A DNA stretch of 64,000 bases from a virus (Duplodnaviria; Caudoviricetes): the IMG/VR virus record IMGVR_UViG_3300005805_000065, positions 1 through 64,000 of that record; one strand, given 5' to 3'. Shown piece after piece: positions 3,001 through 64,000 of this stretch. The notes under the pieces were generated by a model that was not told the DNA's origin, did not search any database, and worked only from the letters and a program-made list of their open reading frames with translations. The translations under genes and the position numbers were made by a program. The stretch's first letter is position 1; each line of letters opens with the position of its first letter.

Positions 3001-6000
3001 GTCCGTTGACGGTAATGCCAAATGCTAAATTTAAAGATTATAAGAAGAGTATAAAGGATGCAACACCCTCAGAAAAAGATGCAAGATTAAGAACGCTGGT
3101 TGAAAGAACGAGGGCTAGAAGAGCAAGAGATGCCGCCGCTGCCCCCAGTGCAGCATCTGTGGCAGCGCCTGCAGCTGCGGCAACAGGAGCTGTTGCCGCC
3201 GCAAAAGCTGGGATTATGTCAAAAATTGGAGCATCTCTTGGATCTGCATTAAGCAAGAGCGCTGGTGTTGGTCTTAAAGCTGTGCAGGCTGGTTTTGGCA
3301 TAATTGGAAAATCAAGTGCTGAATTCTTTAAGATGAGCATTGCATTTATTGACATGTATGCAAATGCTCTGGGGGGAGCAACTGCAAGTTCTAAGCTTGC
3401 AGCCGGTGCGACAAAAACATTGGCTGTTGCAAAAGCTGGATTAAATTCTGTTTCTAGATTTACTACATTAGCTCTAAATAAAGCAGCCGCAGCCACAATG
3501 GCATTTGGCAGAGCTGTTGGCACAACAACTAGGGCAGAGTTGATGACATTTTATGCCTCGCTTACAAAAAGCAGGATATTAAAGATGTGGGGATTCCTAT
3601 TATTCGCAGGAATGAAGCCGATCATAAAAGGTTTTGGCGCATTGGCTTTGGCAGCTGGAAGGTTTATGTTAACATTAAAATTTGGAAATCTTCTGGCTGG
3701 TTTCCAAGCGGTGTATCAGTCGATTCTTAGAACAACACTCAGTGTTGTTGCATTGGGGATTAAATTAAATGCAGCAATGTTAATGATTGCTCCAATATTA
3801 ATATTGGTATTCTCGATTATTTCTAAAGTTAAAAGAGGAATATCCGGCATGTCGCCGGCAATGGACAATTTTAAGGCAGCGTGGTTTGCAATCAAAGATG
3901 CTATATACATGCTGGCAGCGCCGCTAGAGAATATGATTGCAGCGTTTGGTGGTTTAGGGAATCAGGGTAATTCTGTTAAAAGAACCGCTGGTGTTGTTTG
4001 GCTCCTCTCAAGAGGTGTTCGTGCAGTTGCTGAGGCATTTCAGAGATTTGCTATGGGACCAGGAACAAAATATATGCAGAGTGTTGTTGTCCCAATTATT
4101 ACAAGACTTGTAAATAGATTTATTCTACTTGGAAGAGCAATTAGCAATACATTGAGTGGAAATACCGCTAGAGCCTCAAAAGACTTTAAAGGTTTCTTAT
4201 ATTCAATGCTTTATGAATTAATTGCTGTTACTGGAAAATTTGTAAGCATCTTAGCAACAGGTTTAGAAATGTTTGCTCCAACATTAGCTAGAATGATTGA
4301 TGCAATAGTTGCTGCAACAATATCTGCATTTAGAAAAATTTTAATGTTCGTAAGAGAAGTAATGATGCTGATTGGAGCTGTTGTTGGAGGTATAGGTCTA
4401 GTAACAGGTAATTTGCCGATTGCTCTTAAGGGGGCAGCAATAGCCGGTGGTGGCGCGGCTTTCTTGTTCTTAGACAAGCAGCTTGCAAAATTTGAAGAAA
4501 GCGCACGAACAGGTGGTCTTGGCGCTGGTGAATTTATCGCAAATGGTATTGCAAGTGGCGCAAGAGGCGCTGCGAATGGTTTAGATAAACTAAAGAATTT
4601 TGTTGGTAAAAAATATGGACAAGAGATAGGTCGTGGAATAAATGATGCACTTGGTGTTGCATTAAGTAAGGATATGCCTAAAGATGTTAGAAATGCAGTT
4701 CTTAAATCCGCTGATGATGCTAATGCTGGCGGTGAATCTCTTGGTCAACAAATTGCAAAGGGGATTAAAAAAGGTCTGCAAGATCTTAAAGAGGAATTCA
4801 CAGATAAATTCTTTGGCAAGGCTGATTCTGAAGTTGATAAATTTGTTGAAAAGCTAAAAGAAGGTCTCGAGAATCAAAAAGAAAAAGCGCTGGAAGCGTT
4901 TGATAATCAAGTAGAAGCAATTGAAGCTCTTGCTGAGGCTGAAGAAAGACTTACTGCAAAAATTGAATATGAAGAAAAGCGCCGTGAGATGATTCGTGAA
5001 AGAGCGCTGAATAAAGAAAATTATTTGCGTGAAAGAAAAGTTGCTGCCTATGAAGGTAGATCGGAAGACGTTCGTTCTTTGGATCTTTCATTTAGAAAGT
5101 CAAGTCGTGAAGAAGAGAAGAATTTAAATGAGTTAGATTTGGATAGAGCAAGAACCCTGCAGGCTGAGAATAGGCAGAATGCAATAAAAGTTATTAATAA
5201 AGAAAAAGAAAATCTTATCAAAGAATATGAAAAGATGTTTAAAAACTTTGATGAGAAAATTGAGCTCATAAAATCAAGAGGTTTCTCTACAGAAGCCGAG
5301 TTTAGACAGATGTTTACCAATCTCCAGAATGCTGCATCTGGCTTCTCTGACGACATAGCTGGTTCGCTAGAGAAGTCAATGATGAGCCTGCCAGCGGCTA
5401 TAAGACAGCATTCTGACCCATCAATTGGAATGTTTGGCATGACAATGGGTAAATTGGTTGATGAAGCTAAAAAGTCATTTGGTGTCGGTATTAGCTCGGC
5501 AGATACTGTATCAATACTTGGTGCTGCGTATTCATTAGTAAATGGAATGCCGAGTGCATTTAGGGAAGGGTTTAATCAAGGAATTGTTTCAACATACGTT
5601 ACTCCATTTGCAACAAAGGTTAAAGGTGAACTTGCATCAATAGTTCCCTCAGATCTATGGGTGAAGTCTGCGGGTCTGGCGATACAAGAAATGGTAAACG
5701 AAATGAAGCGAAAGCTCGTCAGTCTCAAGGGAACTTTGTATGACGATATGAAGAAGATGTTTGGCGAAATGACCGAAGAAGATTGGAATAGAATATTCAA
5801 CTTCTCCGGGGCGTTTTCTGATCTGGAATCTCTAAAAGATTATTTCAGCAATCTGTTCCCTACGGCAGAAAAACTCAAGAAACAGATAGTAACGATTGAG
5901 ACAACGAGATCAAATGCAGATTCTGGTGGCAGTGGTGAAAAGCCAAAGGCAGGAGCTGGTTTAACTCCAAGCGAAGTGAACGCGCTAAAGCCTGGAAATC

Positions 6001-9000
6001 AAGACATGCTGGTAAGAGTTGGTAAAGGATTAGTGCCTGGTCCAATTGAACCAAAAGAGGATCCAAAGAAAGGCTATTTTAGCAAACTGAAAGACATTAT
6101 AGTTGGAATAGCTGAGTATCTTGGTCCAGTTAAAACAGCAATTCTGGGATTTGTTGGTGTTGTTGCTGGAGCAGCTACGGCTCTGCCAATATGGGTTGCC
6201 ATAAAGGGAGTGCTGGTTGCAGTCGCTGGAACAGTTGGAATTATACCTGTTTTGATTGGAACTGCAGTAGGAGTCCTTATTTATCTATATGCAAGATTTA
6301 AGGCTGTCAGAGATATTGTAAACGGTGTTGCCATAGCAATCTGGGACGGGCTTGTAGCCGCTTTTAATTTTGTTAAAGATTTAGGAATTGGGGCTTTTGA
6401 TGGAATTAAAATTGCATTTGGTAATTTATGGGATGGTTTTAATAATATTGCATTACCACAAATTAAAAACTTATGGGATGGATTTACATCTGGATTTACA
6501 ATTGCACTCGATTTTCTAAAAGATCAATTAGTTAGAAGATGGAATGTTATTGTAGACATTGTTAAGAGCCTGTTTGGTCCGATTAAAGAAATGTGGAAAG
6601 CAAGCCTTGAGGCTGGATGGAGTATAGCAAAAAATATATTTGAAAATATTTGGAATGTTTTGAAAGAACTATTTCTTACATTAAAGGTAATATTTGAGCC
6701 AATTATAAAAATTGTAATTGGTGCATTTGTTATTTTAACAGAAGTTATAACAAGAGTTATGGAAGGATTGAAAGGACCAATTATTGGTATTGGCACTGTT
6801 ATAGCTAAAACATTTACGTTCTTATATCCAATTTTTGCAAATATTGCAAACTTTATAATTGATGTTTTGGGTGGTGCAATTGTTGGTGTATTAAAAATAA
6901 TTAGAGGCGTATTCCAGGGCATATACGCAGTAATAGGTTTTGTTGTAAAAGGTTTGTACACATCAGTAAGTGTTGTTGTCAGTGTAGCTGCAGGAATTGC
7001 TAAAGCGATATTTAATATTTTAAATGCAATTTGGACCAACCCGGTGGTTAAGTGGATTAGAGATTTCTTGTTTAGAGTTCTCATGCTTGGTATTTTTATT
7101 GTTGCAAAATTGCTAGAAACATTTGCTAAGACAATATTTAACTCTTTCAAGACAGTGTTTAATATATTTAAAGCGGTTGCTGGATTCATATATGATAGCT
7201 TGAAGCCTGGACTTGAGTTAATATGGACAGTTATCAAAGCTGTATTCACCCCAGTTGTGGAAGTGTTAAAAGGTGTTTGGCAATTTATAAAATGGATATA
7301 TGATGAGTTTGGAATTCTTGGATTAATTTTGGCTCCATTTGTTGCTGCGTTTGAATTGATAAGAAAAGCCCTTGAGATTGCATGGAATGTTGCCAAGGCG
7401 TTTTTTGAAACATTCATGGTTCTTGGAAGAATTGTATTTTCATTAGTTAAAGATTTGGCTAAAGCAATTTGGGACGGGCTCGGTAAAGTTTGGGATCTGA
7501 TTTCTCCAATAGTGAATAAATTCTGGGATGGTCTAAAGATAGCCGCAGAGTTTGTGTGGGGGGTTATTAAATCTGTTGGGCAGGGTATTTGGGATGCGCT
7601 AGGGTGGGTTTGGGATAAAATTGGTTTAGTTGCTGGCAAGTTCTGGGATGGATTGAAAGCTGTTGCTCAAACCGTTTGGGATTTTCTTAAAACTGTTGGT
7701 CAAGGTATATGGGATGGGCTGGGTTGGATTTGGGACAAGATTGGTGGAGTTGCAAAGGCATTTTGGGAAGGGCTGAAAACTGCCGCACAAACTGTATGGG
7801 ATTTCTTGAAGACAATCGGAGATGGCATTTGGAATGCGATTGGCTGGGTGTGGGGCAGGATTGGTGGAGTAGCAAAAGCATTTTGGGAAGGATTAAAAAT
7901 AATAGCTAAAAATGTATTGGACTTTTTTAAGACTTACAATATTTGGGAGATTCTTGGGAAAGTCTGGGATCTAGTTAAACAAGCCGCGGAGATGTCTTTT
8001 GGATTTATAAAAACTGTTGCTGAAACTGTTTGGGCTTTTCTAAAAACTGTTGGAGAAGGCATCTGGGTGGCGCTGGGTAGTGTTTGGGACATGATAAAAC
8101 CGGCAGTTCAAGGGTTTTGGGACATTATTACCGCTGGTTGGGATATTGTCGGTCCAATCTTTGATGGCATCTGGGGCTGGCTGTGGGAGTGGATAGGTCC
8201 AGCATTTAATATGATTGTTGAGACAGTAAAGTTGTTCATGGATGCCTTCCAGACATTATGGAGCTGGGCTGAACCTGTATTAAGTCAACTTTGGGGTTGG
8301 CTATGGGATGGTATTAAGTGGGCATGGGATCAAATTGCTGAAGTATTAAGTTTCTATTGGGATCTGTTTAAGAGAGTATGGGGCTGGCTTGGACCAATTC
8401 TTAAAGAATTTATGGGCTGGCTGTGGGACAAGATAAAGGTAGCATGGGAAAATCTTGTCACAGCTGTTCAAAAAGTTTGGGACATTATAAAGGGAATGTG
8501 GGAGGTCGTTTCTCCAATCCTGCAAAAGATGGCTGAATTGATAAAGAATGGGATTGGGGCGGCAATTGATGGTGTTAAAGCAGCGTGGAATTTGTTAAAA
8601 GACGCTGTCTCAGGCACTTTTAATTGGTTTAAAGATAAGTTTGGTGCGGTTGGCGAAATGATTAGAGATTCTATTGGTGGCGCTGTTGATTGGGTATCGG
8701 ATAAGTTTAATAATATACCAGAAATATTTAAGAGTGTAATAAATGGAGTGACTGGGGCAATAAATAAAGTTACTGGATTTACATTCACTATGCCACCATG
8801 GCTGAAATATATTGGACTTGGATCAGTCGCTGGTAAGACATATTCATTTAGAGATGTTATACCAGAAATACCAAAATTATATAATGGTGGAAAAGTTGGC
8901 TCTTACATGAAGGGCGGCATGGCTTACGGCTATGGCGGTATGACCAAGGGATTTGCGCAACAAGGGATCCCAGCAGTATTGCACGGCGGTGAGTATGTAA

Positions 9001-9332
9001 TTAATCACAAAGCAGTAAAGAGAATTGGCACTGATACTCTCGATGCGCTAAACAATATGCGCTTGTCAAAGCCAAGATACCCACAAATGCCTTCAATTCC
9101 AAATGTCACCATGCCAAACTTAAGAATTGATAACTCCACAATCGCCCAAGCCCCGGCTGGATCTTCTACTCAAAATGTAAATATCTATGTTGATACGTTT
9201 GTTGGCGAACCAGAGTGGTTCAACTCAATGATGAAGGAATACAATACAAGAGTTCTTCCAAGAAATCAAAAAGCTGCAGGTCTTGAAAATAGAGTTATAA
9301 GAACATATAACGGATTGAATAGAGGTGGATGA
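1..9332 (+). CDS. Tail tape measure protein (5' truncated by window edge)
   Basis: Frame is open from base 3, so the TTG at 36 is probably not the true start. Ala/Lys-rich helical composition, 11/22-residue Trp-periodic repeats (IWDGLGWVWDK type, ~7.4-8.6 kb) and a C-terminal LHGGEYV motif. Directly upstream of tail genes. Confidence 0.9.
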   Translation, partial: RLPRNLKPLEDLYNNLTSSIERRVSNIRETQRAGGVSKTVRDAAEKAKRNAYNIAEGNLLKTKFKGLTLSEKDAAGGLVEKIAVTATPVPEDMQKALMEERQAFQQFRQMSSRTSKEEEKVIRQRLKEARKKVEALKKLGVATKPVPTTTSQVVPASKLSRDIQELKSMDNAANQMLEAQRTPGMALRGSTDEQINRNVMERARRTILPKKVTASTSNIKAALEISILEKEKEIAKAIAAGDKSLLNLLKQTPGYSDPATIKRATGKTKQRLEASNRMLIRRLAEQRADLSMFDIDSEKYDPSAQQRLFTKSSAKQVAERRVQREVDERLTSGRSFSTKEISGRKAAALKEAKALEEAVNKVAADNTAQARTARQKLATQFNKTRAALLKRYGSLDKAEEALAAMAAKEAAKSAAIPTAASVAASTRAPVVTAAGAGAVRTPTGVSRVFFSDVGKAVTSTVSGAAKTVGDEIARLLDDVLVKAIPAGFDPAKAKVIRAVVGEVLAKTPITAASAATPAAQKFMATVLGTMGPDIARVIDTLAPQITEAISAGGISAKGGIIQSAKARTVSAFNKLKGVATAKLVGDVAMLRTGIEAAVFDAIAAAGYAVESTTSSVAEALRSGTFSDAMLPGYLDELTEKRGRRSAAAVESGARGGAAAAEGKPSLTREERNVARRKKRAVERLMKERGIDATAATTLYDEAVKSGDDAVKELLPDTRRKVKDAAEKILEAPAEALDEASKAAGEAVAKAKEEIVESLDEAAEAATPSAPVSKPTPKSPVVPGAPATGPPIIDVRTTPIKDIRSGIPAGVDKIGGRTTKDAIDKISALRAEAAKITKELTAVTKDVTGFEKAVASSTGRLQAENQKALDKAKSAFKKKTARLIKVNKELDTIQKSIDSALKKAATPATAATTTAATTGAATTGAAATGAAATGAAASAAPAGARGPRVPGVSVPTATPAAAVATSAIVEKLDDVIVEFDRSLANFFKGPNFFQGPNYFAGPLTVMPNAKFKDYKKSIKDATPSEKDARLRTLVERTRARRARDAAAAPSAASVAAPAAAATGAVAAAKAGIMSKIGASLGSALSKSAGVGLKAVQAGFGIIGKSSAEFFKMSIAFIDMYANALGGATASSKLAAGATKTLAVAKAGLNSVSRFTTLALNKAAAATMAFGRAVGTTTRAELMTFYASLTKSRILKMWGFLLFAGMKPIIKGFGALALAAGRFMLTLKFGNLLAGFQAVYQSILRTTLSVVALGIKLNAAMLMIAPILILVFSIISKVKRGISGMSPAMDNFKAAWFAIKDAIYMLAAPLENMIAAFGGLGNQGNSVKRTAGVVWLLSRGVRAVAEAFQRFAMGPGTKYMQSVVVPIITRLVNRFILLGRAISNTLSGNTARASKDFKGFLYSMLYELIAVTGKFVSILATGLEMFAPTLARMIDAIVAATISAFRKILMFVREVMMLIGAVVGGIGLVTGNLPIALKGAAIAGGGAAFLFLDKQLAKFEESARTGGLGAGEFIANGIASGARGAANGLDKLKNFVGKKYGQEIGRGINDALGVALSKDMPKDVRNAVLKSADDANAGGESLGQQIAKGIKKGLQDLKEEFTDKFFGKADSEVDKFVEKLKEGLENQKEKALEAFDNQVEAIEALAEAEERLTAKIEYEEKRREMIRERALNKENYLRERKVAAYEGRSEDVRSLDLSFRKSSREEEKNLNELDLDRARTLQAENRQNAIKVINKEKENLIKEYEKMFKNFDEKIELIKSRGFSTEAEFRQMFTNLQNAASGFSDDIAGSLEKSMMSLPAAIRQHSDPSIGMFGMTMGKLVDEAKKSFGVGISSADTVSILGAAYSLVNGMPSAFREGFNQGIVSTYVTPFATKVKGELASIVPSDLWVKSAGLAIQEMVNEMKRKLVSLKGTLYDDMKKMFGEMTEEDWNRIFNFSGAFSDLESLKDYFSNLFPTAEKLKKQIVTIETTRSNADSGGSGEKPKAGAGLTPSEVNALKPGNQDMLVRVGKGLVPGPIEPKEDPKKGYFSKLKDIIVGIAEYLGPVKTAILGFVGVVAGAATALPIWVAIKGVLVAVAGTVGIIPVLIGTAVGVLIYLYARFKAVRDIVNGVAIAIWDGLVAAFNFVKDLGIGAFDGIKIAFGNLWDGFNNIALPQIKNLWDGFTSGFTIALDFLKDQLVRRWNVIVDIVKSLFGPIKEMWKASLEAGWSIAKNIFENIWNVLKELFLTLKVIFEPIIKIVIGAFVILTEVITRVMEGLKGPIIGIGTVIAKTFTFLYPIFANIANFIIDVLGGAIVGVLKIIRGVFQGIYAVIGFVVKGLYTSVSVVVSVAAGIAKAIFNILNAIWTNPVVKWIRDFLFRVLMLGIFIVAKLLETFAKTIFNSFKTVFNIFKAVAGFIYDSLKPGLELIWTVIKAVFTPVVEVLKGVWQFIKWIYDEFGILGLILAPFVAAFELIRKALEIAWNVAKAFFETFMVLGRIVFSLVKDLAKAIWDGLGKVWDLISPIVNKFWDGLKIAAEFVWGVIKSVGQGIWDALGWVWDKIGLVAGKFWDGLKAVAQTVWDFLKTVGQGIWDGLGWIWDKIGGVAKAFWEGLKTAAQTVWDFLKTIGDGIWNAIGWVWGRIGGVAKAFWEGLKIIAKNVLDFFKTYNIWEILGKVWDLVKQAAEMSFGFIKTVAETVWAFLKTVGEGIWVALGSVWDMIKPAVQGFWDIITAGWDIVGPIFDGIWGWLWEWIGPAFNMIVETVKLFMDAFQTLWSWAEPVLSQLWGWLWDGIKWAWDQIAEVLSFYWDLFKRVWGWLGPILKEFMGWLWDKIKVAWENLVTAVQKVWDIIKGMWEVVSPILQKMAELIKNGIGAAIDGVKAAWNLLKDAVSGTFNWFKDKFGAVGEMIRDSIGGAVDWVSDKFNNIPEIFKSVINGVTGAINKVTGFTFTMPPWLKYIGLGSVAGKTYSFRDVIPEIPKLYNGGKVGSYMKGGMAYGYGGMTKGFAQQGIPAVLHGGEYVINHKAVKRIGTDTLDALNNMRLSKPRYPQMPSIPNVTMPNLRIDNSTIAQAPAGSSTQNVNIYVDTFVGEPEWFNSMMKEYNTRVLPRNQKAAGLENRVIRTYNGLNRGG
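2721..2810 (+). repeat. 15-bp coding tandem repeat (GCAGCAACAACAGGT-like; AATTG/AAATG peptide) in the tape measure gene
   Basis: About 5 imperfect copies read directly from the sequence. Confidence 0.85.
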
Positions 9333-46851: not shown

Positions 46852-47817
46852 ATGAAAAATAAGCAAGTATCAAACAACAACAACAAGGAGAAAGTAGTGA
46901 AAAATAAAACTACCTCTAATCAATTAACAGCAAAGCAAGCCAGAAAGGATTTGAATGTAGCAATTGCTACTAAACACGAATCCCTCGGTGCAAACTTTGA
47001 TATTGGACACATTTCAAAGATGTCTTCTTTGATTAAAGTTTCTGATATGTTTGTTGATTACACCTATCAGCGTGAACCGTTGAAGGCAAAAATCAACCGT
47101 ATTGTAAAGAGTTTTGACCCAGATTTGCTTGGTGTAATCACTTGCTCAATGCGTGAAGATAATACATTGGCAATTATTGATGGTAGCCATAGGTATCATG
47201 CATTGATTGCTATGGGAATGAAAAACACAAATGTAAACGCTCTCGTTTACTTTGGTCTATCAATTGAAGATGAAGCGCGTATTTTTGCGTTGACTAATAA
47301 AGAACACACAAAACCAACGCCGGCACAAATCTTTAAAGCAGGAGTTGTTTCTGGAGATAAATCTGCAATTGCAATTGATACAATTGTTGATAAAGTTGGT
47401 GCTAAAATCCATTTCTCACCTGGCGCTGATAATATTAGATGTGTCGGCACTTTGCGAAAAGTTTACACAAATGCCGGTGGAAATGTGCTGGCTAAGACAC
47501 TAGAAACACTTAAAGCCGCGTACCCAAATAATGAAGAAATGTACAGTGGTCAAATGATTTCAGCAATTGCTTGCATCTATAATCGATACGGTAAGAAAGT
47601 AGATCAACAACGATTGATTGAGACATTAACAAAGATTGGCAACCCTTCAATAGTCATTGCTCAGGCAAAGGCTATGATTAGCAGTGGTACAGTCGTTACT
47701 TTCACTTCATTGCCATATCTTATTGTTAGCCGATACAATGTGAAATTGAAGACTAATCGCCTTACTGATTTCCCAATGAATTTGGTTGCTCAACAAGTAT
47801 GGACAAGCAAAGGTTAA
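46852..47817 (+). CDS. ParB/Srx-like N-terminal domain protein
   Basis: VDYTYQR...FDPDLLG...IIDGSHRYHA; SD-led starts at both 46852 (ATG) and 46897 (GTG). Confidence 0.7.
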   Translation: MKNKQVSNNNNKEKVVKNKTTSNQLTAKQARKDLNVAIATKHESLGANFDIGHISKMSSLIKVSDMFVDYTYQREPLKAKINRIVKSFDPDLLGVITCSMREDNTLAIIDGSHRYHALIAMGMKNTNVNALVYFGLSIEDEARIFALTNKEHTKPTPAQIFKAGVVSGDKSAIAIDTIVDKVGAKIHFSPGADNIRCVGTLRKVYTNAGGNVLAKTLETLKAAYPNNEEMYSGQMISAIACIYNRYGKKVDQQRLIETLTKIGNPSIVIAQAKAMISSGTVVTFTSLPYLIVSRYNVKLKTNRLTDFPMNLVAQQVWTSKG

Positions 47818-57467: not shown

Positions 57468-59930
57468 GTGAAGAAAGTATCAAATCAATTAATATTGATA
57501 AAGTAACAGTAATGATCAATACTGACACTGATGAAATTTATGTCAGTAGATGTATTGAATGTGAAAAACTACTGACTGCTGATGAAGCAAGTTATGGACA
57601 CGACTGTGAGTAAAAAAGAAATAGATTTTGAATCTATTTATAAAAAACATATTTATTACTCCGTAGATAAAGAAGAACATTGGTTGATCGATCAATTCAA
57701 AGTATTTGGTGATCCAACATTTTATGGCGCTTTATCTGAAGGGTGGACTTGTGCTGAATATTTTAGCACTGGTAATAAACATTCATATGTATGCACTATT
57801 GCTCATGATGAAACTGAGTTATCAGTAGATGTTTATTCAGATGGTGCAATGAAATATGTTCATTATAGAGATAAATATATCATTAGAAATGCAAATGATA
57901 TGTTTACATATGGATTCAATACACAGGAAGCTTTTAGTAAAGCTGTTGAAGATGAAAAACTTATTATTGAAAATAATTCGTGGTTCGATCTTTATAGCAG
58001 TTGGAATCAATGGTCTGGTGATAGTGAAGAATTTATAAGTCATGATTTATTTGATGCAATACCGAATGCAGCAGAAGTTTTAGTAAATCAGGTCAAGCAT
58101 CTTTATAATATTATAGCAACAGAAAATAACAATATGACACTAAAGAAGGCATCATGGTAGATACACACATTCCAGCTTATGTTAGAGTAAATGTTACATA
58201 TAAATTTGTATATCCAACTCATGACATAACACTCAATTGGAAAGACTTAGAAGATGAGTTTCTATTAAAAAAAGTTAAAGAGATGATTCTCGAGTTTTTA
58301 TTTGAAGACTTATCTTCTAATGAAGATGGAACAATTGAATGGTTTGATGATGATACAAATGAACCACTTGGCTGGGGACCGGTATGAAAAGAAATACACA
58401 GGGTGTCTTATTTATAATTGGGGTAGCACTATACCTCGTATTTATGACAGCTTTTGTTGGATCTTGTATTGGAAGTAATTTATGAAAAGATGTTTTAAAA
58501 ATGAAGAAGATTTAGTATTAGAGCTAATAAAAGCTCTCGAAGCCCAATATGATTATATGATATCCCCAGAAGATGAACAAATGTATAAAGAATGGTTAGA
58601 TTGGTTAAGAAATAAATACGATAATATTTAAGGAGACACAATGGAAATGAAATATAATGATTGGTTGGAGAAATATCAACCAATTCCACACCCGGATTCT
58701 AAAGATGGTCATATTTATTATGAAACATTTGGAGAAGATTACGAAATGGTAAAGAAAGCAAATCGTAACAATGTTTGGACACTTGTTCAGGCTGATGAAG
58801 ATTTGATCATTATTAATCATTTTGCCTGGGTAAATAGAATTAATTATTTAATAACAGAAGTTCCGTATAATCCAGATGAACACATTGAGGTTGTAGACTA
58901 ATGAACATTAACAATACGATAAGCAAAATAAAAGAAGCAAGAAAAGATGCTCTGAAGGAAAGAAGATATGCAGAAGCTGATGGTAACTCAGATTATGCTT
59001 TTTGGGATGGTTATATCAGTGGTATGGATCAAGCAATCTTTCTTCTTGAACAAAAAGTAGAAAAGAAAAAAGCTAAGAAAGAAAACAAAAAAGAGAAAAA
59101 ATAGTACTAATATTAACTATAAATTATCACAAGGACAATAATGACAAATATCGAACAATTAGAGGAGAAATTAAATTATGTTCACTGCGTTTTTCAAGAG
59201 CTGGAAACTATGGCTATTAATCTTCCTATCGGGGATTATAACCTTTGCTATAGTTATTTGGAGGAGGCTCGAGAATACATTAGATTACTTATTGAACAAA
59301 GAAGACGAGAGAATCCTGAAGGATATACTTTCATCACAAAAGAAGGATTTGTAACATGGGAATAAAAGAATTTGATATGCCCGGAGGTGGCAAAATTATA
59401 CGATTACTAAGCCCGGAACTAGAGAAAAAGATGGCTGAAAAGGAAAAGTATTATACTGTTTCTTTCTCAGATGATTATGCAACCCTACAAACAACGGTGG
59501 CTGCATTTGATGAAGATGAGGCAATTGATAAAGCAATTGAACAGATATCGGATTACTATGATCTTGATATAACTACATGGAAATGTGATGATGTGGAGGA
59601 AACAAATGGGTAAAGGTATGAAAAGATTCTTGGTATCGGCATATTATTCTGACTGGATTATTGCCGGCTCTGAAGATGAAGCAATTGATGAATTAGCTCA
59701 TAGAATCGCGGCGGGGTTAATTAAAAGGCATGAATGGGGATTAGAACTACAGGAAGATGATGAGCAATATGAGTGAACAAAGAGAAAGCCGGGTATGGAC
59801 TAGATACTGCGATCAAGGATGTGGATATAAGCTGCCAGAAGAATACGCTGAAGATGAAACAACTTGCGGGGCTTGTCTAAATGAATTGTTATTCCTAGAA
59901 GAATAGATAAAGGATTGTATCTTCAGTTAA

Positions 59931-59984
59931 GGTATACGCTACCAAATGGGTATACGTAACCAAATGGGTATACGCTACCAAATA
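59931..59984 (+). repeat. Three 18-bp direct repeats GGTATACG(CT/TA)ACCAAAT(G/A) (iteron-like)
   Basis: Copies at 59931, 59949 and 59967. Confidence 0.95.
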
Positions 59985-60039
59985 GTAAGAGACGAGAGCT
60001 CAACTCTCAACATAAATATTAAAATAGATGGGAGTACAT

Positions 60040-60055
60040 TGTTCCACGTGGAACA
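60040..60055. promoter_or_regulatory. parS-type palindrome TGTTCCACGTGGAACA
   Basis: Perfect 16-bp palindrome conforming to the bacterial parS consensus; intergenic. Confidence 0.75.
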
Positions 60056-60073
60056 TTCCCAGCTAAAAGCAAA

Positions 60074-60101
60074 GGAATATGCTTAAATATAGGCATATTC
60101 C
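60074..60101. repeat. Inverted repeat GGAATATGC-N10-GCATATTCC
   Basis: Perfect 9-bp arms. Confidence 0.8.
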
Positions 60102-60128
60102 CAAAAAAATTTGTCTAAAATGGCATAT

Positions 60129-60216
60129 AAAAATAAATAAAAATAGGTAAAAACATAGTAAAAAGTGGTAAAAAGTGGGGAAAAGTAGGGAAAAATGGGG
60201 CAAAAGATAGTAAAAA
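60129..60216 (+). other. Nine helically phased A4-5 tracts (curved DNA)
   Basis: Tracts start at 60129, 139, 149, 160, 170, 181, 191, 202 and 212; mean period 10.4 bp. Confidence 0.85.
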
Positions 60217-60254
60217 GTGTGCGATTGTGAAATGCTCATATCTTGAGACCCTAT

Positions 60255-60277
60255 ATTACCCCCTCTATAGGGGTAAT
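60255..60277. repeat. Inverted repeat ATTACCCC-N7-GGGGTAAT
   Basis: Perfect 8-bp arms. Confidence 0.75.
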
Positions 60278-60730
60278 TGGCATAAATTTAAAAGAATATA
60301 CTGATAGAAACAAATAAACCCCGATTTTTTCATTGCCCTTACTATCGACCTTTTAATCGAGAGAAGTCTCGAGGATTTTTAGTACAGTTCAAACGACTAA
60401 TCAACCAATTTTAATATGCAGAGAAAGCCGGATTGATTACAACGTTGTTATTACCGACTTTATAATGTCGGGGTAGATCAATGGATCTATATCGTCTTTG
60501 GTATAGGAATAAATAGAGCCGACTACCCAGCCATTGGCACACAAGGGTGGTCCCTAAAAAAAATTTGCCTGCATCCGCATAGGCAAAACTAAATACAATT
60601 TGAAACAGATATGTAGATATATAGTTATGATTAGGAATATAGATTAAAGTAAAGGAAAAAAGAAATAAAAATAAATTGGTGTACAAATAAGAATACATTC
60701 TTATTCGGAACACCAACTCAAAGGTTTAGT

Positions 60731-60812
60731 TTGAAAATATGTAATCAAGTTAGGTAAATACAAATGCAAAACAATTGGTGGTCAAGCAGCGCTTAGCTGC
60801 TAAGACCACCAA
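60731..60812. promoter_or_regulatory. Promoter-less operator + inverted-polarity hairpin module 0
   Basis: TTGAAAATATGTAATCAA (60731-48), then hairpin 60775-60812 with TAAGC loop on the minus strand. Confidence 0.7.
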
Positions 60813-60814
60813 CG

Positions 60815-60842
60815 AAAATGCGTGCGCCTTTCGGCGCACGCA
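60815..60842 (-). terminator. Cassette 1 terminator
   Basis: 10-bp GC stem, GAAA loop on the minus strand, T4. Confidence 0.8.
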
Positions 60843-60868
60843 CTCCGTGTGAACGGCATTGCCATTGG

Positions 60869-61150
60869 TTATTTGGCTAGCGAAACCACACACTCACCGT
60901 CAGTAGTCCATTGAATGGACACTTCCAATGAGTGCTGGCTTGCCATTGAAACAACACGATTGCGCACTTTGTTTTTGTGTGCAATGTAGTTGTCGTCTTC
61001 GGGATTGCCTTGTCCGGCTTCGTAGATGAATGCGTCATCTTCTACGCCAGCGTCAAGTGCGAGCAGTTCGGCTTCCAGGATTGGGTCCTGGAATGCGTCA
61101 CGACCACGCTTGACTAGTCGGGATTGGATATCGCTCAGGTTCACTTTCAT
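60869..61150 (-). CDS. Cassette 1 gene, paralogue family KVNL..IQSRLVKRGRDA (copy 1)
   Basis: SD GAAAGG; 93 aa; obvious similarity to copies 2 and 3. Confidence 0.85.
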   Translation of the reverse strand: MKVNLSDIQSRLVKRGRDAFQDPILEAELLALDAGVEDDAFIYEAGQGNPEDDNYIAHKNKVRNRVVSMASQHSLEVSIQWTTDGECVVSLAK

Positions 61151-61197
61151 AGTGCGCCTGCCTTTCTTTGTGATTGGGCAACCCGTTCACGAAGAAC

Positions 61198-61294
61198 ACA
61201 CTACCTAGACATTGAGAATGTGTATTCAACAGACTATGCCTATGCATCTAGTGAACGGGCGTGCAACGCAGCTAGGCGCTGGCTCGCACTCCCG
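61198..61294 (-). promoter_or_regulatory. Cassette 1 promoter/operator + hairpin
   Basis: -10 TAGTGT (61198-203), operator 61212-29, hairpin 61256-94 (loop TAGGC on +). Confidence 0.85.
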
Positions 61295-61308
61295 CCAGGT
61301 AAAAGAAT

Positions 61309-61392
61309 TAGAAAATGTATATTAAAAGTGAGACACATAGCGATCCCTAAAGGCTGGCGGTCAAGCAGCGTATAGCTGCTAAGAACGCCAGC
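61309..61392. promoter_or_regulatory. Promoter-less degenerate operator + inverted hairpin
   Basis: TAGAAAATGTATATTAAA (14/18 match to the cassette 1 operator), hairpin 61353-92 with TATAC loop on -. Confidence 0.7.
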
Positions 61393-61395
61393 GAG

Positions 61396-61423
61396 AAACG
61401 CCCCGCCCTTGCGGGGCGGGGCG
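61396..61423 (-). terminator. Cassette 2 terminator
   Basis: GC stem, GCAA loop on -, short U tract. Confidence 0.75.
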
Positions 61424-61439
61424 CTCTCACTTGCGGGGA

Positions 61440-61742
61440 TTACTTGCGAAACGAAACGACCATTTCGCCAGCGTCAGTCCATTGGACGCTGATTTCCACC
61501 TCGTCCCCGAGGTGGCGAGTGGCGAGGGAGTTGACACGATTCCGCCAAGTGTTCTTGTGGTTCGTGTACTCCTCGTTGGTGCTGACGCACTCACCCTCGA
61601 ATGTCGCCTCCTCGAAGAGGAATGCGTCATCAGGGGTGCTCGGGTCAAGGGCGAGCAATTCCGCTACGAGTTCAGGGTTCTCGTATGCGTCACGCCCACG
61701 CTTGACCAAGCGGGACTGAATCTGTTTCAGGTTGACCTTCAT
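61440..61742 (-). CDS. Cassette 2 gene, paralogue copy 2
   Basis: SD AAGGAG 7 nt before ATG 61742 (MKVNLKQIQSRLVKRGRDA); 100 aa. Confidence 0.85.
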   Translation of the reverse strand: MKVNLKQIQSRLVKRGRDAYENPELVAELLALDPSTPDDAFLFEEATFEGECVSTNEEYTNHKNTWRNRVNSLATRHLGDEVEISVQWTDAGEMVVSFRK

Positions 61743-61797
61743 TTCATTTCTCCTTGTTGCGAGGTGATAGGGAATTGCGTCCTCGTCAACACTCAAC

Positions 61798-61895
61798 ACA
61801 CTAACTAGGTAATGAGAATGTGTACTCAACTAACTATGTCTATGGCAACGCAACGCCGGTCGTGCAATGTAGCTATGCGCTACTATGCCCGCCCG
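61798..61895 (-). promoter_or_regulatory. Cassette 2 promoter/operator + hairpin
   Basis: -10 TAGTGT, operator 61812-29, hairpin 61857-95 (loop TATGC). Confidence 0.85.
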
Positions 61896-61910
61896 CCGGG
61901 GTAAGGTAAT

Positions 61911-61993
61911 TAGAAAATGTGTATTAAAGAGAATGTGAAAGCGATCTCACTGCGGCTGGCGGTCAAGAGCGAATAGCTCGACAGAACGCCAGC
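61911..61993. promoter_or_regulatory. Promoter-less degenerate operator + inverted hairpin
   Basis: TAGAAAATGTGTATTAAA, hairpin 61955-93 with TATTC loop on -. Confidence 0.7.
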
Positions 61994-61996
61994 GAG

Positions 61997-62025
61997 AAAC
62001 GCCCCGACCCTTTCGGGTCGGGGCG
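61997..62025 (-). terminator. Cassette 3 terminator
   Basis: CGCCCCGACCC/GGGTCGGGGCG, GAAA loop on -. Confidence 0.8.
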
Positions 62026-62048
62026 CTTTCGGGGAGTAGGCGTGGTGG

Positions 62049-62345
62049 TTACGCCTTGTATGACACCACCATCTCGCCATCCACTGTCCACTGGATGGAG
62101 AGTGAGCCATCGGGGATACCGATGCTCGATGCGACCGACTTGACACGGTTGCGCCACAAGTTCTTGTGGTTCACGTACTCGTCGCTGTCGGTGTCACCTG
62201 CGAACGTCGCTTCCTCAAAGAGGAAGGCATCGTCGTTCTCAGGGCTGAGCGCAGTCAGTTCTGCGCTCAACTGCTCGTTCTCGTAGGCATCACGCCCACG
62301 CTTCACGAGCCTGCTTTGGATGTCTTTCAGGTTTACCTTTGCCAT
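62049..62345 (-). CDS. Cassette 3 gene, paralogue copy 3
   Basis: SD AAAGGAG before ATG 62345 (MAKVNLKDIQSRLVKRGRDA); 98 aa. Confidence 0.85.
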   Translation of the reverse strand: MAKVNLKDIQSRLVKRGRDAYENEQLSAELTALSPENDDAFLFEEATFAGDTDSDEYVNHKNLWRNRVKSVASSIGIPDGSLSIQWTVDGEMVVSYKA

Positions 62346-62397
62346 TGGGATGGCTCCTTTATGGGTGTCGCACGATACCTTCGTGCTGACATCCATC

Positions 62398-62494
62398 ACA
62401 CTACTTAGGCATTGAGAAAGTGTATTCAACTTAGTATGCGTATGCTACGAGAGAACTGGCGTGCAAGCGGAGCTAAGCGCTCCTCGCCCACCAG
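62398..62494 (-). promoter_or_regulatory. Cassette 3 promoter/operator + hairpin
   Basis: -10 TAGTGT, operator 62412-29, hairpin 62456-94 (loop TAAGC). Confidence 0.85.
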
Positions 62495-62498
62495 CCGC

Positions 62499-62537
62499 AA
62501 GACAAAAAGAAAAGGGGTGAGCCTTTCGGCTCACCCC
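62499..62537 (-). terminator. Cassette 4 terminator
   Basis: GGGGTGAGCC/GGCTCACCCC, GAAA loop, long U tract on -. Confidence 0.9.
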
Positions 62538-62544
62538 AGGTCTT

Positions 62545-62859
62545 TCACCTACGCCTGCGCTCTCGTTGGAGCCTGCGTATGGCTGGTTTGGTGTTGTCGA
62601 GGTAGATACCCCATTCAGTACCTTCTCGACGGTATCGCACGGCGTAGTCGCGAACCCTCACACACTTGCTGTCCTTGCGTGCCAACACGTGCTTTGCCGT
62701 GGTGAACACTTTGGTGAACATCACGGCTGTCTCGCTGTCCGAGACAGTCAGAAGTTTCACCATTGTGGGACGACGCTTGAGCCTGAGCACTCCGAACGCC
62801 TTTCGGAGCCGAGCGAGAGCCCAGTATCCGTATTCGTCTGCCAATGTCATTGTTGCCAT
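62545..62859 (-). CDS. Cassette 4 gene, basic hypothetical protein
   Basis: SD GAAAGG; 104 aa lying between promoter and terminator. Confidence 0.75.
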   Translation of the reverse strand: MATMTLADEYGYWALARLRKAFGVLRLKRRPTMVKLLTVSDSETAVMFTKVFTTAKHVLARKDSKCVRVRDYAVRYRREGTEWGIYLDNTKPAIRRLQRERRRR

Positions 62860-62909
62860 TGTTGCCTTTCTCGCAACCGTTGTCTGAACGGTTGCCGTTG
62901 TTGATTAGT

Positions 62910-63008
62910 ACACTAACTAGGCATTGAGAATGTGTACTCAACTATGGAGAGTGTATCTACCGTGTGTGCGGGCGTGCAACCTAGCTAAGCGCTCGATCGC
63001 CCACCCGC
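62910..63008 (-). promoter_or_regulatory. Cassette 4 promoter/operator + hairpin
   Basis: -10 62910-15, operator 62924-41, hairpin 62968-63008 (loop TAAGC). Confidence 0.85.
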
Positions 63009-63011
63009 CCT

Positions 63012-63051
63012 AAGACAAAAAAAGAGGGCGAGGGGCTTGCGCCCCTCGCCC
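63012..63051 (-). terminator. Cassette 5 terminator
   Basis: 11-bp GC stem, GCAA loop, U7 tract on -. Confidence 0.9.
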
Positions 63052-63057
63052 GACTTC

Positions 63058-63300
63058 TTATTCCTCTTCGGCTTCCATTGCGTCAGCCATTACCTGCCAG
63101 CACTCAGCGCCGATTCCTGAGATGAGAACCTCACGGTCGTCGAGGCTCAGGAATGGGAGAGCGTCCTGAATCAGGTACTCTCCACTCTGCCATTGGGAGA
63201 GCCCGACCATTGTTGCGATGAACAACTCGTCGGGGACAGTCACCGTGTGGTTAGCACCACAGATGACGCACTCCTTGTTGTTGGTGATTGTTGCGGACAT
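63058..63300 (-). CDS. Cassette 5 gene, small Cys-containing protein
   Basis: MSATITNNKECVICG...LIQDALPFLSLDDREVLISG..ECW; purine-rich SD. Confidence 0.8.
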   Translation of the reverse strand: MSATITNNKECVICGANHTVTVPDELFIATMVGLSQWQSGEYLIQDALPFLSLDDREVLISGIGAECWQVMADAMEAEEE

Positions 63301-63350
63301 TGCTTTCCCTTCCGCAGTTGGTATCGGACCAACTGCTGTTGTTGAGAAGA

Positions 63351-63448
63351 ACACTACATAGGCATTGAGAATGTGTACTCAACTATGGAGACTGTGTGTA
63401 TCGTGTGAGTGGGCGTTCGCGAAGCTAGGCGCTTAGCCGCCCGCCCAC
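63351..63448 (-). promoter_or_regulatory. Cassette 5 promoter/operator + hairpin
   Basis: -10 63351-56, operator 63365-82, hairpin 63409-48 (loop TAGGC). Confidence 0.85.
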
Positions 63449-63450
63449 CA

Positions 63451-63493
63451 AAGACAAAAAAAGAGGGGAGCCGAGGCTTTCGCCTCGGCTCCC
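63451..63493 (-). terminator. Cassette 6 terminator
   Basis: 12-bp GC stem, GAAA loop, U7 tract on -. Confidence 0.9.
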
Positions 63494-63521
63494 ACTCCGT
63501 CAGGGCAAGCGTCGGATTGGA

Positions 63522-63857
63522 CTAGCGCCGAGCGAGGCGCAAGGCACGAAGTACCTTGCGAACCCTCGCCTTGCGCTTATTGCGCTTGCGTGTGCGACGA
63601 GCCTTGCGCTTCGTCGCCTCGCTCCACGGCTTGCGCTTGCGCTTGGGCTTGGCGATGTGCCTCACCTGCGCCTTGGCGCGAGCCTTGGGGCTGGCAACGA
63701 CCGCTGGGGTCGTCGGGGCGATGACCGTCGCCTGCGGTGCTGGCGCAGTTGCCTGCGCTGGCTTGACTACCACCGCTGGCTTGACTGCCTGCGCTGGCTG
63801 TGTCTGCCCTGCGAGAAGTGCTCCTCGCAAGGCTGGGTGCTTGCCTGACTTAGCCAT
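63522..63857 (-). CDS. Cassette 6 gene, Ala/Pro/Thr-rich protein with Lys/Arg-rich tail
   Basis: SD AGGAGG before ATG 63857; C-terminal KPKRKRKPWSEATKRKARRTRKRNKRK. Confidence 0.75.
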   Translation of the reverse strand: MAKSGKHPALRGALLAGQTQPAQAVKPAVVVKPAQATAPAPQATVIAPTTPAVVASPKARAKAQVRHIAKPKRKRKPWSEATKRKARRTRKRNKRKARVRKVLRALRLARR

Positions 63858-63898
63858 GATGTACCTCCTGGCTTGTTGGGCTTGCCCTGACACCAACT

Positions 63899-63997
63899 AC
63901 CTTACCTAGGCATTGAGAATGTGTACTCAACTAACAACGAGACAGACATCGTGAGAGTGGGCGTACAGCGCAGCTAAGCGCTGATCCGCACGCCCAC
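63899..63997 (-). promoter_or_regulatory. Cassette 6 promoter/operator + hairpin
   Basis: -10 TAAGGT at the same offset as TAGTGT in the other units, operator 63913-30, hairpin 63957-97 (loop TAAGC). Confidence 0.85.
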
Positions 63998-64000
63998 CAG

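Follow-up and report, generated by a model that had tools for sequence, protein, structure and literature searches.

Orphan genes of T4-like phages are flanked by composite terminator/promoter motifs, the PeSL cassettes, and recombination between these motifs, which involves no dedicated recombinase, shuffles the genes (Arbiol et al. 2010, PMC2839356; Comeau et al. 2014, PMC4122927). At the early promoters of phage N4, a hairpin is extruded by supercoiling, in which some stem bases are fixed and others free and the loop contains a sheared G:A pair, while the single-stranded DNA-binding protein (SSB) melts the hairpin of the other strand only (PMC4496689). Here, we describe a repeated imperfect hairpin from a freshwater siphovirus that shares features with both systems. 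The window analysed comprises bases 1-64000 of the 83,571-bp IMG/VR virus record IMGVR_UViG_3300005805_000065, which runs on past base 64000, and the hairpins lie between small genes in an island of high guanine-cytosine (GC) content.

The layout of this island resembles that of PeSL regions. A hyperplastic region of small, autonomous orphan genes is interspersed with a repeated terminator/promoter motif of approx. 100-130 nt. In the window, at least six units of terminator, hairpin and promoter-like box precede a small open reading frame (ORF), and ten relatives show the same arrangement. Relatives and strains differ by whole cassettes, the joints fall inside the repeated module (divergence at 63052, 63889 and 63931), and a dedicated recombinase is missing here as well. 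In PeSLs, however, the stem-loop is the terminator, whereas the units described here contain a canonical terminator and a separate second hairpin with a G-N-N-T-A loop, a strand-biased fold, a fixed distance of 45-49 nt to the promoter and inverted copies. The setting also differs, namely a siphovirus with a DnaE-type polymerase, a promoter spacer of 20 nt and an island 10-20 GC points above the genome. The hairpin is best read as the structured core of a junction module of approx. 130 nt, composed of terminator, hairpin, a linker of approx. 31 nt and promoter, between autonomous small-gene cassettes. By analogy, this module would extend the PeSL principle known from T4-like phages by an additional hairpin element.

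The hairpin family is confined to the island. The pattern AGCTANNCGCT matches nine times in the 64-kb window, whereas 100 shuffled sequences gave 0.26 matches on average and two at most, and all nine matches lie between 60788 and 63982. TANNC is found on the + strand in six copies (loop centres 61275, 61876, 62476, 62988, 63428 and 63977) and on the - strand in three (60793, 61372 and 61973). Beyond the window, one strict copy at 64441 and degenerate copies at approx. 64776 and 65243 raise the number in the whole record to 12-13. Every copy folds into a hairpin of approx. 40-45 nt with an intrinsic terminator before it and a conserved promoter-like box after it. A covariance model built from 67 copies retrieved 100 copies at E <= 2e-5 from 189 kb in ten related phage contigs, all of them in equivalent islands; outside the island, the window contained no match save one at E 0.58. 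Likewise, the 9-mer core GCTANNCGC clusters in islands (13 of 14 matches in one record, 15 of 16 in another; 0-1 for reversed-pattern controls). A search of Rfam gave no match to the hairpins at E <= 1, the weak matches (17-24 bits, below the gathering scores) being restricted to positions on or beside the terminators. Scans of genome and metagenome contigs with hairpin-arm patterns returned, among the matches listed, only chance singletons from unrelated taxa and are uninformative as to hosts and distribution. The initial annotation, made from the sequence of the window, had reported nine copies of a hairpin of approx. 40 bp without known family, placed after a terminator and before the next promoter. 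These observations are confirmed and, by the covariance-model search that it had called for, extended to a phage family.

The six promoter-linked copies in the window (type A) are located on the - strand at 61251..61299 (43.3 bits with the covariance model, E 2e-9; loop GCCTA on the - strand, TAGGC on the + strand), 61852..61900 (36.3 bits), 62451..62499 (48.2 bits), 62964..63012 (50.0 bits), 63405..63452 (38.6 bits) and, at the window edge, 63953..63999 (31.5 bits). The other three (type B) represent the same element in inverted orientation and match the covariance model on the + strand. They lie at 60770..60817 on the left border of the GC-rich island, at 61349..61396 (20.6 bits on the + strand) right behind the weak-T-tract terminator of the second of three paralogous genes, and at 61951..61997 (24.2 bits on the + strand) behind the terminator of the third.

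The hairpin fold is kept by selection. In the window, the apical stems vary from copy to copy (CAGC/GCTG, TAGC/GCTA, GGAGC/GCTCC, AAGC/GCTT), and since such differences occur between copies of one phage, it is pairing that is conserved rather than a protein-read sequence. Across the 100 model-aligned copies from ten phages, 85.4% of the cells at paired positions are paired as compared to 73.3% in shuffles. Changes on both sides were found in 13 of 16 pairs, and the 178 double-change cells exceed the 72 expected, with none of 500 shuffles as high. When the partner columns were slid by 1-3 positions, pairing dropped to 27-47%. The copies are related by descent, so that the shuffle counts do not represent probabilities, but the slid controls and the variation within genomes agree in direction. 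Compensatory changes in the inner stem, selection for a structure and constant loop bases had all been proposed on inspection of the window; the copies do differ by the matching changes listed, their stems covary within one phage and between phages, and three loop positions are fixed. Conservation is highest in the promoter-proximal arm (TTGCAC..CC), to which the distal arm conforms, also by an A/G alternation opposite a fixed T: at pair 15-38, type A copies have 36 Watson-Crick pairs, mostly A-T, and 43 G.T pairs. On a separate note, the distal arm forms a run of G-tracts on the gene-sense strand (e.g. GGTGGGCGGGCGG) at 61280-61299, 62480-62499, 62993-63012 and 63433-63452, the 5′ arms of the minus strand, which could, in principle, give a two-tetrad G-quadruplex competing with the hairpin.

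Folding is strand-biased. In gene orientation, the type A loop reads G-N-N-T-A with G1, T4 and A5 nearly invariant, closed by C-G and G-C pairs. Non-Watson-Crick pairs on the mRNA-sense strand of type A copies are G.T in 93 and A.C in 18 cases. The strand with the G-N-N-T-A loop has the greater stability in 80 of 85 copies when DNA parameters are used and in 74 of 85 with RNA parameters, in every one of the ten phages, and of 53 position-defined modules, 41 fold better on the gene-sense strand. For the six type A copies of the window, z-scores on the minus strand range from -2.2 to -5.7. In the order given above, they are -3.1 (with a folding energy of -26.6 kcal/mol), -2.6, -2.2, -4.1, -2.8 and -5.7, the corresponding plus-strand values being -0.8, -1.2, -0.5, -0.8, -2.7 and -4.2; thus, four of the six plus-strand (TANNC) versions (z -0.5 to -1.2) are no better than shuffles. 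Intrinsic terminators in the same islands show an equal bias (32 vs 7), whereas background windows of 50 nt are symmetric (783 vs 694). As one strand is favoured by the fold, a cruciform and an antisense RNA with the TANNC loop, both considered initially, are disfavoured. In a cruciform, both strands must fold, which conflicts with the ratio of G.T to A.C and with the greater stability of the G-N-N-T-A strand. A short antisense RNA would carry the weaker TANNC hairpin, and a conserved promoter on the + strand was not found. The initial description of the loop as TANNC applies to the + strand of the six promoter-linked copies, the fold of which is weaker than that of the minus strand.

The inverted copies differ from type A in the quality of their stems, which are almost perfect (204 Watson-Crick pairs, one G.T and three A.C). 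The two strands of the copy at 60770..60817 (G-N-N-T-A loop on the + strand) fold with z -6.5 and -6.7, and z-scores are approx. -6 for both strands at 61349..61396 and approx. -3.5 for both at 61951..61997. The covariance model assigns type B copies 29-44 bits on the opposite strand, as compared to 14-26 bits on the gene strand. Read in the orientation of the element, the 85 gene-sense and the 15 inverted copies retain G1, T4 and A5. A loop pattern that is constant in both orientations fits recognition of the DNA element itself and not of one transcript. In all relatives, type B copies follow the weak-T-tract terminators of the paralogous genes, which encode proteins of approx. 95 aa, and the last of them marks the island border facing convergent genes.

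A further constraint is the distance to the promoter-like box. This conserved box of 32 nt, TTGAGTAC followed by TAGTGT, is also conserved in the relatives, where the -10 position is occupied by TATAGT or TAAGGT. In 79 of 79 type A modules from the ten phages, the loop centre lies 45-49 nt from the box start (standard deviation (SD) 1.45). The distance between the upstream T-tract and the hairpin, in contrast, varies from 20 to 106 nt (SD 29), and that between the box and the start codon from 53 to 122 nt (SD 12). The linker of approx. 31 nt has diverged in sequence between clades but kept its length. Hence, the hairpin is coupled to the promoter and not to the terminator. Inverted copies lie with their loop centre 46-47 nt from a box-like motif that has no -10 element. 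Such motifs are TTGATTAC, 46 nt from the loop centre of the copy at 60770..60817, a degenerate box copy, TTTAATATACATTTTCTAA, on the - strand at 61308..61326, 46 nt after a type B hairpin, and a second one at 61910-61928 on the same strand. In the low-GC relatives, another box copy without -10 element is found just upstream of the hairpin.

The box is probably a promoter, judging from its conservation and its -10-like element. In the window, it occurs on the - strand at 61198-61229 as TTGAATAC, 18 nt and TAGTGT, with 20 nt from TTGAAT to TAGTGT (repeat family D1), and further copies are located at 61798-61829, 62398-62429, 62910-62941, 63351-63382 and 63899-63930. The 20-nt spacing between the TTGAGT-like element and the -10-like TAGTGT is too long for standard sigma-70, and a consensus scan did not call the box. 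An exact scan of IMG/VR for the box returned one chance match inside an unrelated coding region. The terminator scan placed intrinsic terminators on the - strand at 63466..63493 (a GC-rich stem with GAAA loop and T-run), 63026-63051, 62514-62537, 62000-62025, 61399-61423 and 60820-60841. The hairpin itself has no T-run, the termination role being held by the separate terminator. The initial statement that the hairpins lie outside the transcripts is deduced from the terminator and promoter positions. Metatranscriptome contigs from three runs cover coding parts only (61433-61730, 62049-62261 and 63499-63789) and none extends over a hairpin, but at this low depth and in the form of contigs their coverage is uninformative on hairpin transcription.

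Three additional features suggested by the module did not hold. A TTGAG-N8-CTCAA dyad, considered as operator, lacks conservation among the relatives; a second promoter, the -35 element of which would lie in the 3′ arm (TTGCAC-N17-CATAGT), is present in one clade only; and kissing of adjacent A and B loops was rejected because the variable loop bases lack complementarity. Two other kinds of hairpin are present near the boxes. A long, very stable one is located on the minus strand at record positions 65364-65440, just upstream of the first AT-rich box copy at the head of the island. It recurs in at least three relatives, folds with -19.6 kcal/mol on the gene-sense strand and -9.7 kcal/mol on the other strand, and has no match in Rfam. 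Moreover, each cassette has a short GC hairpin of its own in the 5′ leader, located after the box and before the ribosome-binding site (62873-62895 and 63314-63336, for instance), the sequence of which is cassette-specific.

Since only one strand folds well, a single-stranded nucleic acid is indicated, and the fixed promoter distance together with the orientation-independent loop pattern indicates a role at the DNA level that is linked to the promoter. Our tentative proposal, which we regard as possible rather than probable, is a promoter-coupled single-strand DNA hairpin within a PeSL-like junction module, which would be extruded on the upstream side of the promoter and recognised by a protein. 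The hairpin would act in cis on the adjacent promoter. The folding strand would be the one carrying the loop 5′-G-N-N-T-A-3′ closed by C-G and G-C, i.e. the non-template strand in promoter-linked copies. Negative supercoiling behind the active promoter would extrude the inverted repeat, and the complementary arm, which is weaker and has A.C mismatches, would remain single-stranded, either melted or under SSB. A protein could then recognise the stable arm, the helical distance of which to the presumed start, approx. 85 nt downstream, is fixed, and set or insulate the activity of the promoters of the entire cassette class. The protein of approx. 95 aa encoded in the island would be the obvious, putative candidate for this reader. 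The repeated modules also provide homology for cassette swapping.

The N4 early promoters are the closest parallel to such a mechanism. In both systems, a hairpin combines fixed stem positions with free ones that need only pair, and the loop is conserved; the sheared G:A of the N4 loop has its counterpart in fixed loop ends G1 and A5. One strand's hairpin is the stabler one here and the functional one in N4, and both hairpins are associated with early-type small genes. On the other hand, the N4 hairpin has a stem of 5-7 bp and a loop of 3 nt, is centred at -11 on the template strand and constitutes the promoter of a giant virion polymerase, whereas the present hairpin has approx. 18-20 bp and a 5-nt loop and lies on the non-template strand approx. 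85 nt upstream of the presumed start, beside a host-type promoter. A virion polymerase was not found in this phage, its giant ORF of 3017 aa matching tape-measure families and not the N4-type polymerase. The search for a T7-type polymerase (PF00940) gave no match but is weak evidence, since it was negative in every control genome as well; Sigma70_r2 was not found in four records. With geometry, strand and polymerase all different, the likeness is one of mechanism and not of membership.

Several points weigh against the proposed DNA hairpin. Extrusion, the binding protein and the transcription start are all deduced from sequence, and the promoter call rests on conservation and a -10-like TAnnGT/TATAGT at an unusual spacing of 20 nt. 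Extrusion is less easy for an imperfect stem of approx. 20 bp with a loop of 5 nt than for the small hairpins of N4. The apex fold is not invariant, as the apical stem of one relative (G001) has only 2 bp and a shifted alternative pairing. The protein of approx. 95 aa has no recognisable nucleic-acid-binding fold. The strand bias would be equally expected of a sense-strand RNA element, as illustrated by the terminators with their 32 to 7. Finally, we know of no precedent for a non-template-strand hairpin that acts on a host-type promoter from approx. 85 nt upstream. The broader idea that supercoil-extruded, strand-specific hairpins serve as upstream control elements for host-polymerase promoters and switch the early or accessory cassette class via a small phage protein, possibly of the approx. 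95-aa family, is drawn by analogy, as the N4 principle of a stable loop closed by G and A on one strand and a melted other strand, shifted by approx. 85 nt in the upstream direction and to the non-template strand, and appears rather doubtful to us.

That strand bias, equal to the bias of the terminators in sign and size, leads to the alternative that survives best, although we consider it unlikely. Here, the hairpin would be a sense-strand RNA element reached by terminator read-through or by late antitermination through a phage factor, and would function as a back-up terminator or pause, an RNase III-type site or a 3′-end stabiliser insulating the cassettes. Inverted copies would serve transcripts entering the island from convergent + strand genes, which is in line with the last inverted copy being found at the island border facing the convergent gene block in every case. 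The one-sided A/G variation opposite the fixed T at pair 15-38 is a classic RNA pattern, and a stem of approx. 18-20 bp with conserved internal mismatches has the size of an RNase III substrate, as known from the early RNase III sites of T7. The T7 hairpins, too, span about two helical turns, contain an internal loop and lie between early genes, but they are part of one long transcript without terminators between the genes. In the GC-rich clade, the hairpin directly follows strong terminators with 7-9 T, so that little RNA is expected to contain it, and a U-tract after the hairpin is absent. The boxB element of the lambda nut site likewise has a pentaloop that begins with G and ends with A, yet it has a stem of 5 bp and is located downstream of its promoter; in the islands described here, a conserved N-like protein is absent, and the inverted copies do not fit. 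Two proteins with extremely Arg/Lys-rich C-termini are encoded by the orphan cassettes at 63522-63857 (-) and 62545-62859 (-). Arg-rich proteins were considered as N-like partners and rejected because they are not conserved between related islands. An RNA element explains the wobble pattern as well as a DNA hairpin does, but it does not explain the spacing: there is no RNA-level reason why the distance to the promoter should be fixed within 1-2 nt while the distance to the terminator is free.

A recombination element without regulatory role, i.e. an attC-like or REP/RAYT-like single-strand site or a hotspot of cassette gain and loss, seems improbable. One copy is present at each cassette junction, in both orientations and with conserved unpaired positions; the single-strand bias recalls the bottom strands of attC sites; cassette content is highly variable among relatives and strains; and the GC content of the island, raised by 10-20 points in each relative, could reflect GC-biased gene conversion. 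As in attC, there is one imperfect hairpin per cassette, structure is conserved over sequence and one strand appears to be functional. However, no pair of R''/R' cores (RYYYAAC / GTTRRRY) is visible in the hairpin alignment, the cassettes have their own promoters and terminators, integron cassettes having no promoters of their own, and the hairpin is locked to the promoter at a strict distance that recombination leaves unexplained. REP/REPIN-RAYT and IS200/IS605 elements resemble the hairpin as extragenic imperfect palindromes of approx. 40 nt that lie behind terminators, singly or as inverted pairs, and are read single-stranded. They differ in that no Y1 transposase was found here, a GTAG-type 5′ tetranucleotide is absent and the copies are restricted to one island of 4.5 kb and tied to promoters. 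Among four records that are 63-90% complete, none contained a match to the tyrosine integrase family Phage_integrase (PF00589), for which 14 of 14 control genomes were positive. The search for Y1_Tnp (PF01797) in the four records gave one sub-threshold match in one relative (14 bits, four internal stops).

Natural junctions point in the same direction. In an independent lake metagenome, variant contigs leave the reference at 63052, the edge of a terminator, and at 63889 and 63931, the edges of a promoter box. In one of these contigs, the box at 63931 is continued by the sequence found after the box at approx. 64729, approx. 800 nt away. The strains in this metagenome have other cassettes at the three points, and one form lacks the two cassettes between the boxes at approx. 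63931 and 64729. Joints at box and terminator edges argue for homologous exchange between modules and not for site-specific cutting in the hairpin. Kinship with attC or sso hairpins, of which the element had been reminiscent at first sight, is therefore not borne out: neither an integrase nor a Y1/HUH transposase was found in the four records, the R''/R' cores are absent and swaps break outside the hairpin.

An ordinary double-stranded operator is quite improbable. The hairpin would then never form, and the long inverted repeat would be bound by a phage regulator, a dimer or tetramer, as a switch for the entire early class. Such an operator would account for the fixed promoter distance, for the high conservation of the promoter-proximal arm (TTGCAC..CC) and the central 9-mer, and for the use of either orientation, as for any palindromic operator. 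It is countered by the positions that vary within a single phage and still remain complementary, as a single protein would have no means of imposing this on bases outside its recognition, and by the ratio of 93 G.T to 18 A.C, which is meaningless in duplex DNA. A short antisense RNA from the + strand with the TANNC hairpin, or an ssi/sso-like priming signal for the phage primase, is highly improbable, for although a semi-conserved TA(T/C)CGT just upstream of the hairpin on the + strand of many copies, the CTA in the + strand loop (a trinucleotide used by some DnaG primases) and the primase and DnaB-type helicase encoded by the phage speak for it, the hairpin is weak on the + strand (four of six window copies like shuffles, 80 of 85 copies less stable there), the putative -10 is absent from many copies and clades, a terminator for such an RNA is absent and one priming site per gene has no rationale.

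The phage is a freshwater siphovirus with a DnaE-type polymerase. It encodes its own replication genes, namely this polymerase, which is nearest to those of large Streptomyces siphoviruses (37% identity), a DnaB-type helicase, a primase, a UvsX-like recombinase and an exonuclease, as well as tail fibre, portal and protease genes and the tape measure gene at 279-9332, whose product of 3017 aa indicates an unusually long tail. Its DNA is present in lake and freshwater metagenomes: at least part of the stretch was detected in 20 runs from 11 studies, and at least half of its sampled words in 17 DNA runs. The genome, with approx. 35% GC, is AT-rich over most of its length (31-45% GC). From 60775 to approx. 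65270 of the record, GC content rises to 53-59% in a neighbourhood of 31-36%, and this island contains about ten small genes, every one on the minus strand. An assembly chimera as the source of the GC jump at 60775 is rejected because an 8.4-kb contig from another study spans 59800-61827 and because of the presence of the stretch in the 17 DNA runs. Relatives were retrieved via the approx. 95-aa island protein family and the hairpin pattern, and all ten contigs obtained have an island 10-20 GC points above its surroundings (e.g. 50-55% vs 32% and 42% vs 30%), an equal cassette layout and a hairpin before each promoter box. As the GC offset is seen in every related phage, it is maintained and not the fading trace of a transfer; GC-biased conversion in a recombination hotspot could be its cause, as one idea. 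A blastn search with the island against 50,697 phage records gave no match.

Cassette content varies between relatives, and only a block of three tandem paralogous genes on the - strand (60869-61150, 61440-61742 and 62049-62345) is collinear. The approx. 95-aa proteins they encode form the sole family common to all islands, with two or three tandem paralogues at the distal island end. They have no match in Pfam or PHROGs, and an AlphaFold model (pLDDT 84) matched no PDB fold at E <= 0.001. Variable orphan cassettes follow on the same strand at 62545-62859, 63058-63300 and 63522-63857. Beside the island, a gene-free stretch at 59931-60219 contains three tandem 17-mers, GGTATACGCTACCAAAT, with a period of 18 bp, a perfect palindrome of the parS type, TGTTCCACGTGGAACA, at 60040-60055 and repeated A-tracts with a phasing of approx. 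10-11 bp, and a ParB-like protein is encoded at 46852-47817. This stretch is a possible origin or partition region.

In summary, the initial interpretation of the hairpin is partly supported. By analogy with PeSLs, the junction cassette itself would be of a known kind, and the additional hairpin appears to be new. Fast-evolving functions of phages for host takeover and counter-defence reside in arrays of small orphan genes, and the expression, insulation and exchange of such genes are known in detail for the PeSLs of T4-like phages only. To this principle, the hairpin adds a second, structure-selected component that is fixed to the promoter within 1-2 nt, folds preferentially on one strand and keeps its three loop bases independently of orientation. 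It provides a testable system for DNA hairpins that may regulate ordinary promoters outside phage N4 or, should it prove to be an RNA element, for the insulation of strong cassettes in tandem. The covariance model offers a simple marker for such islands in freshwater viromes.

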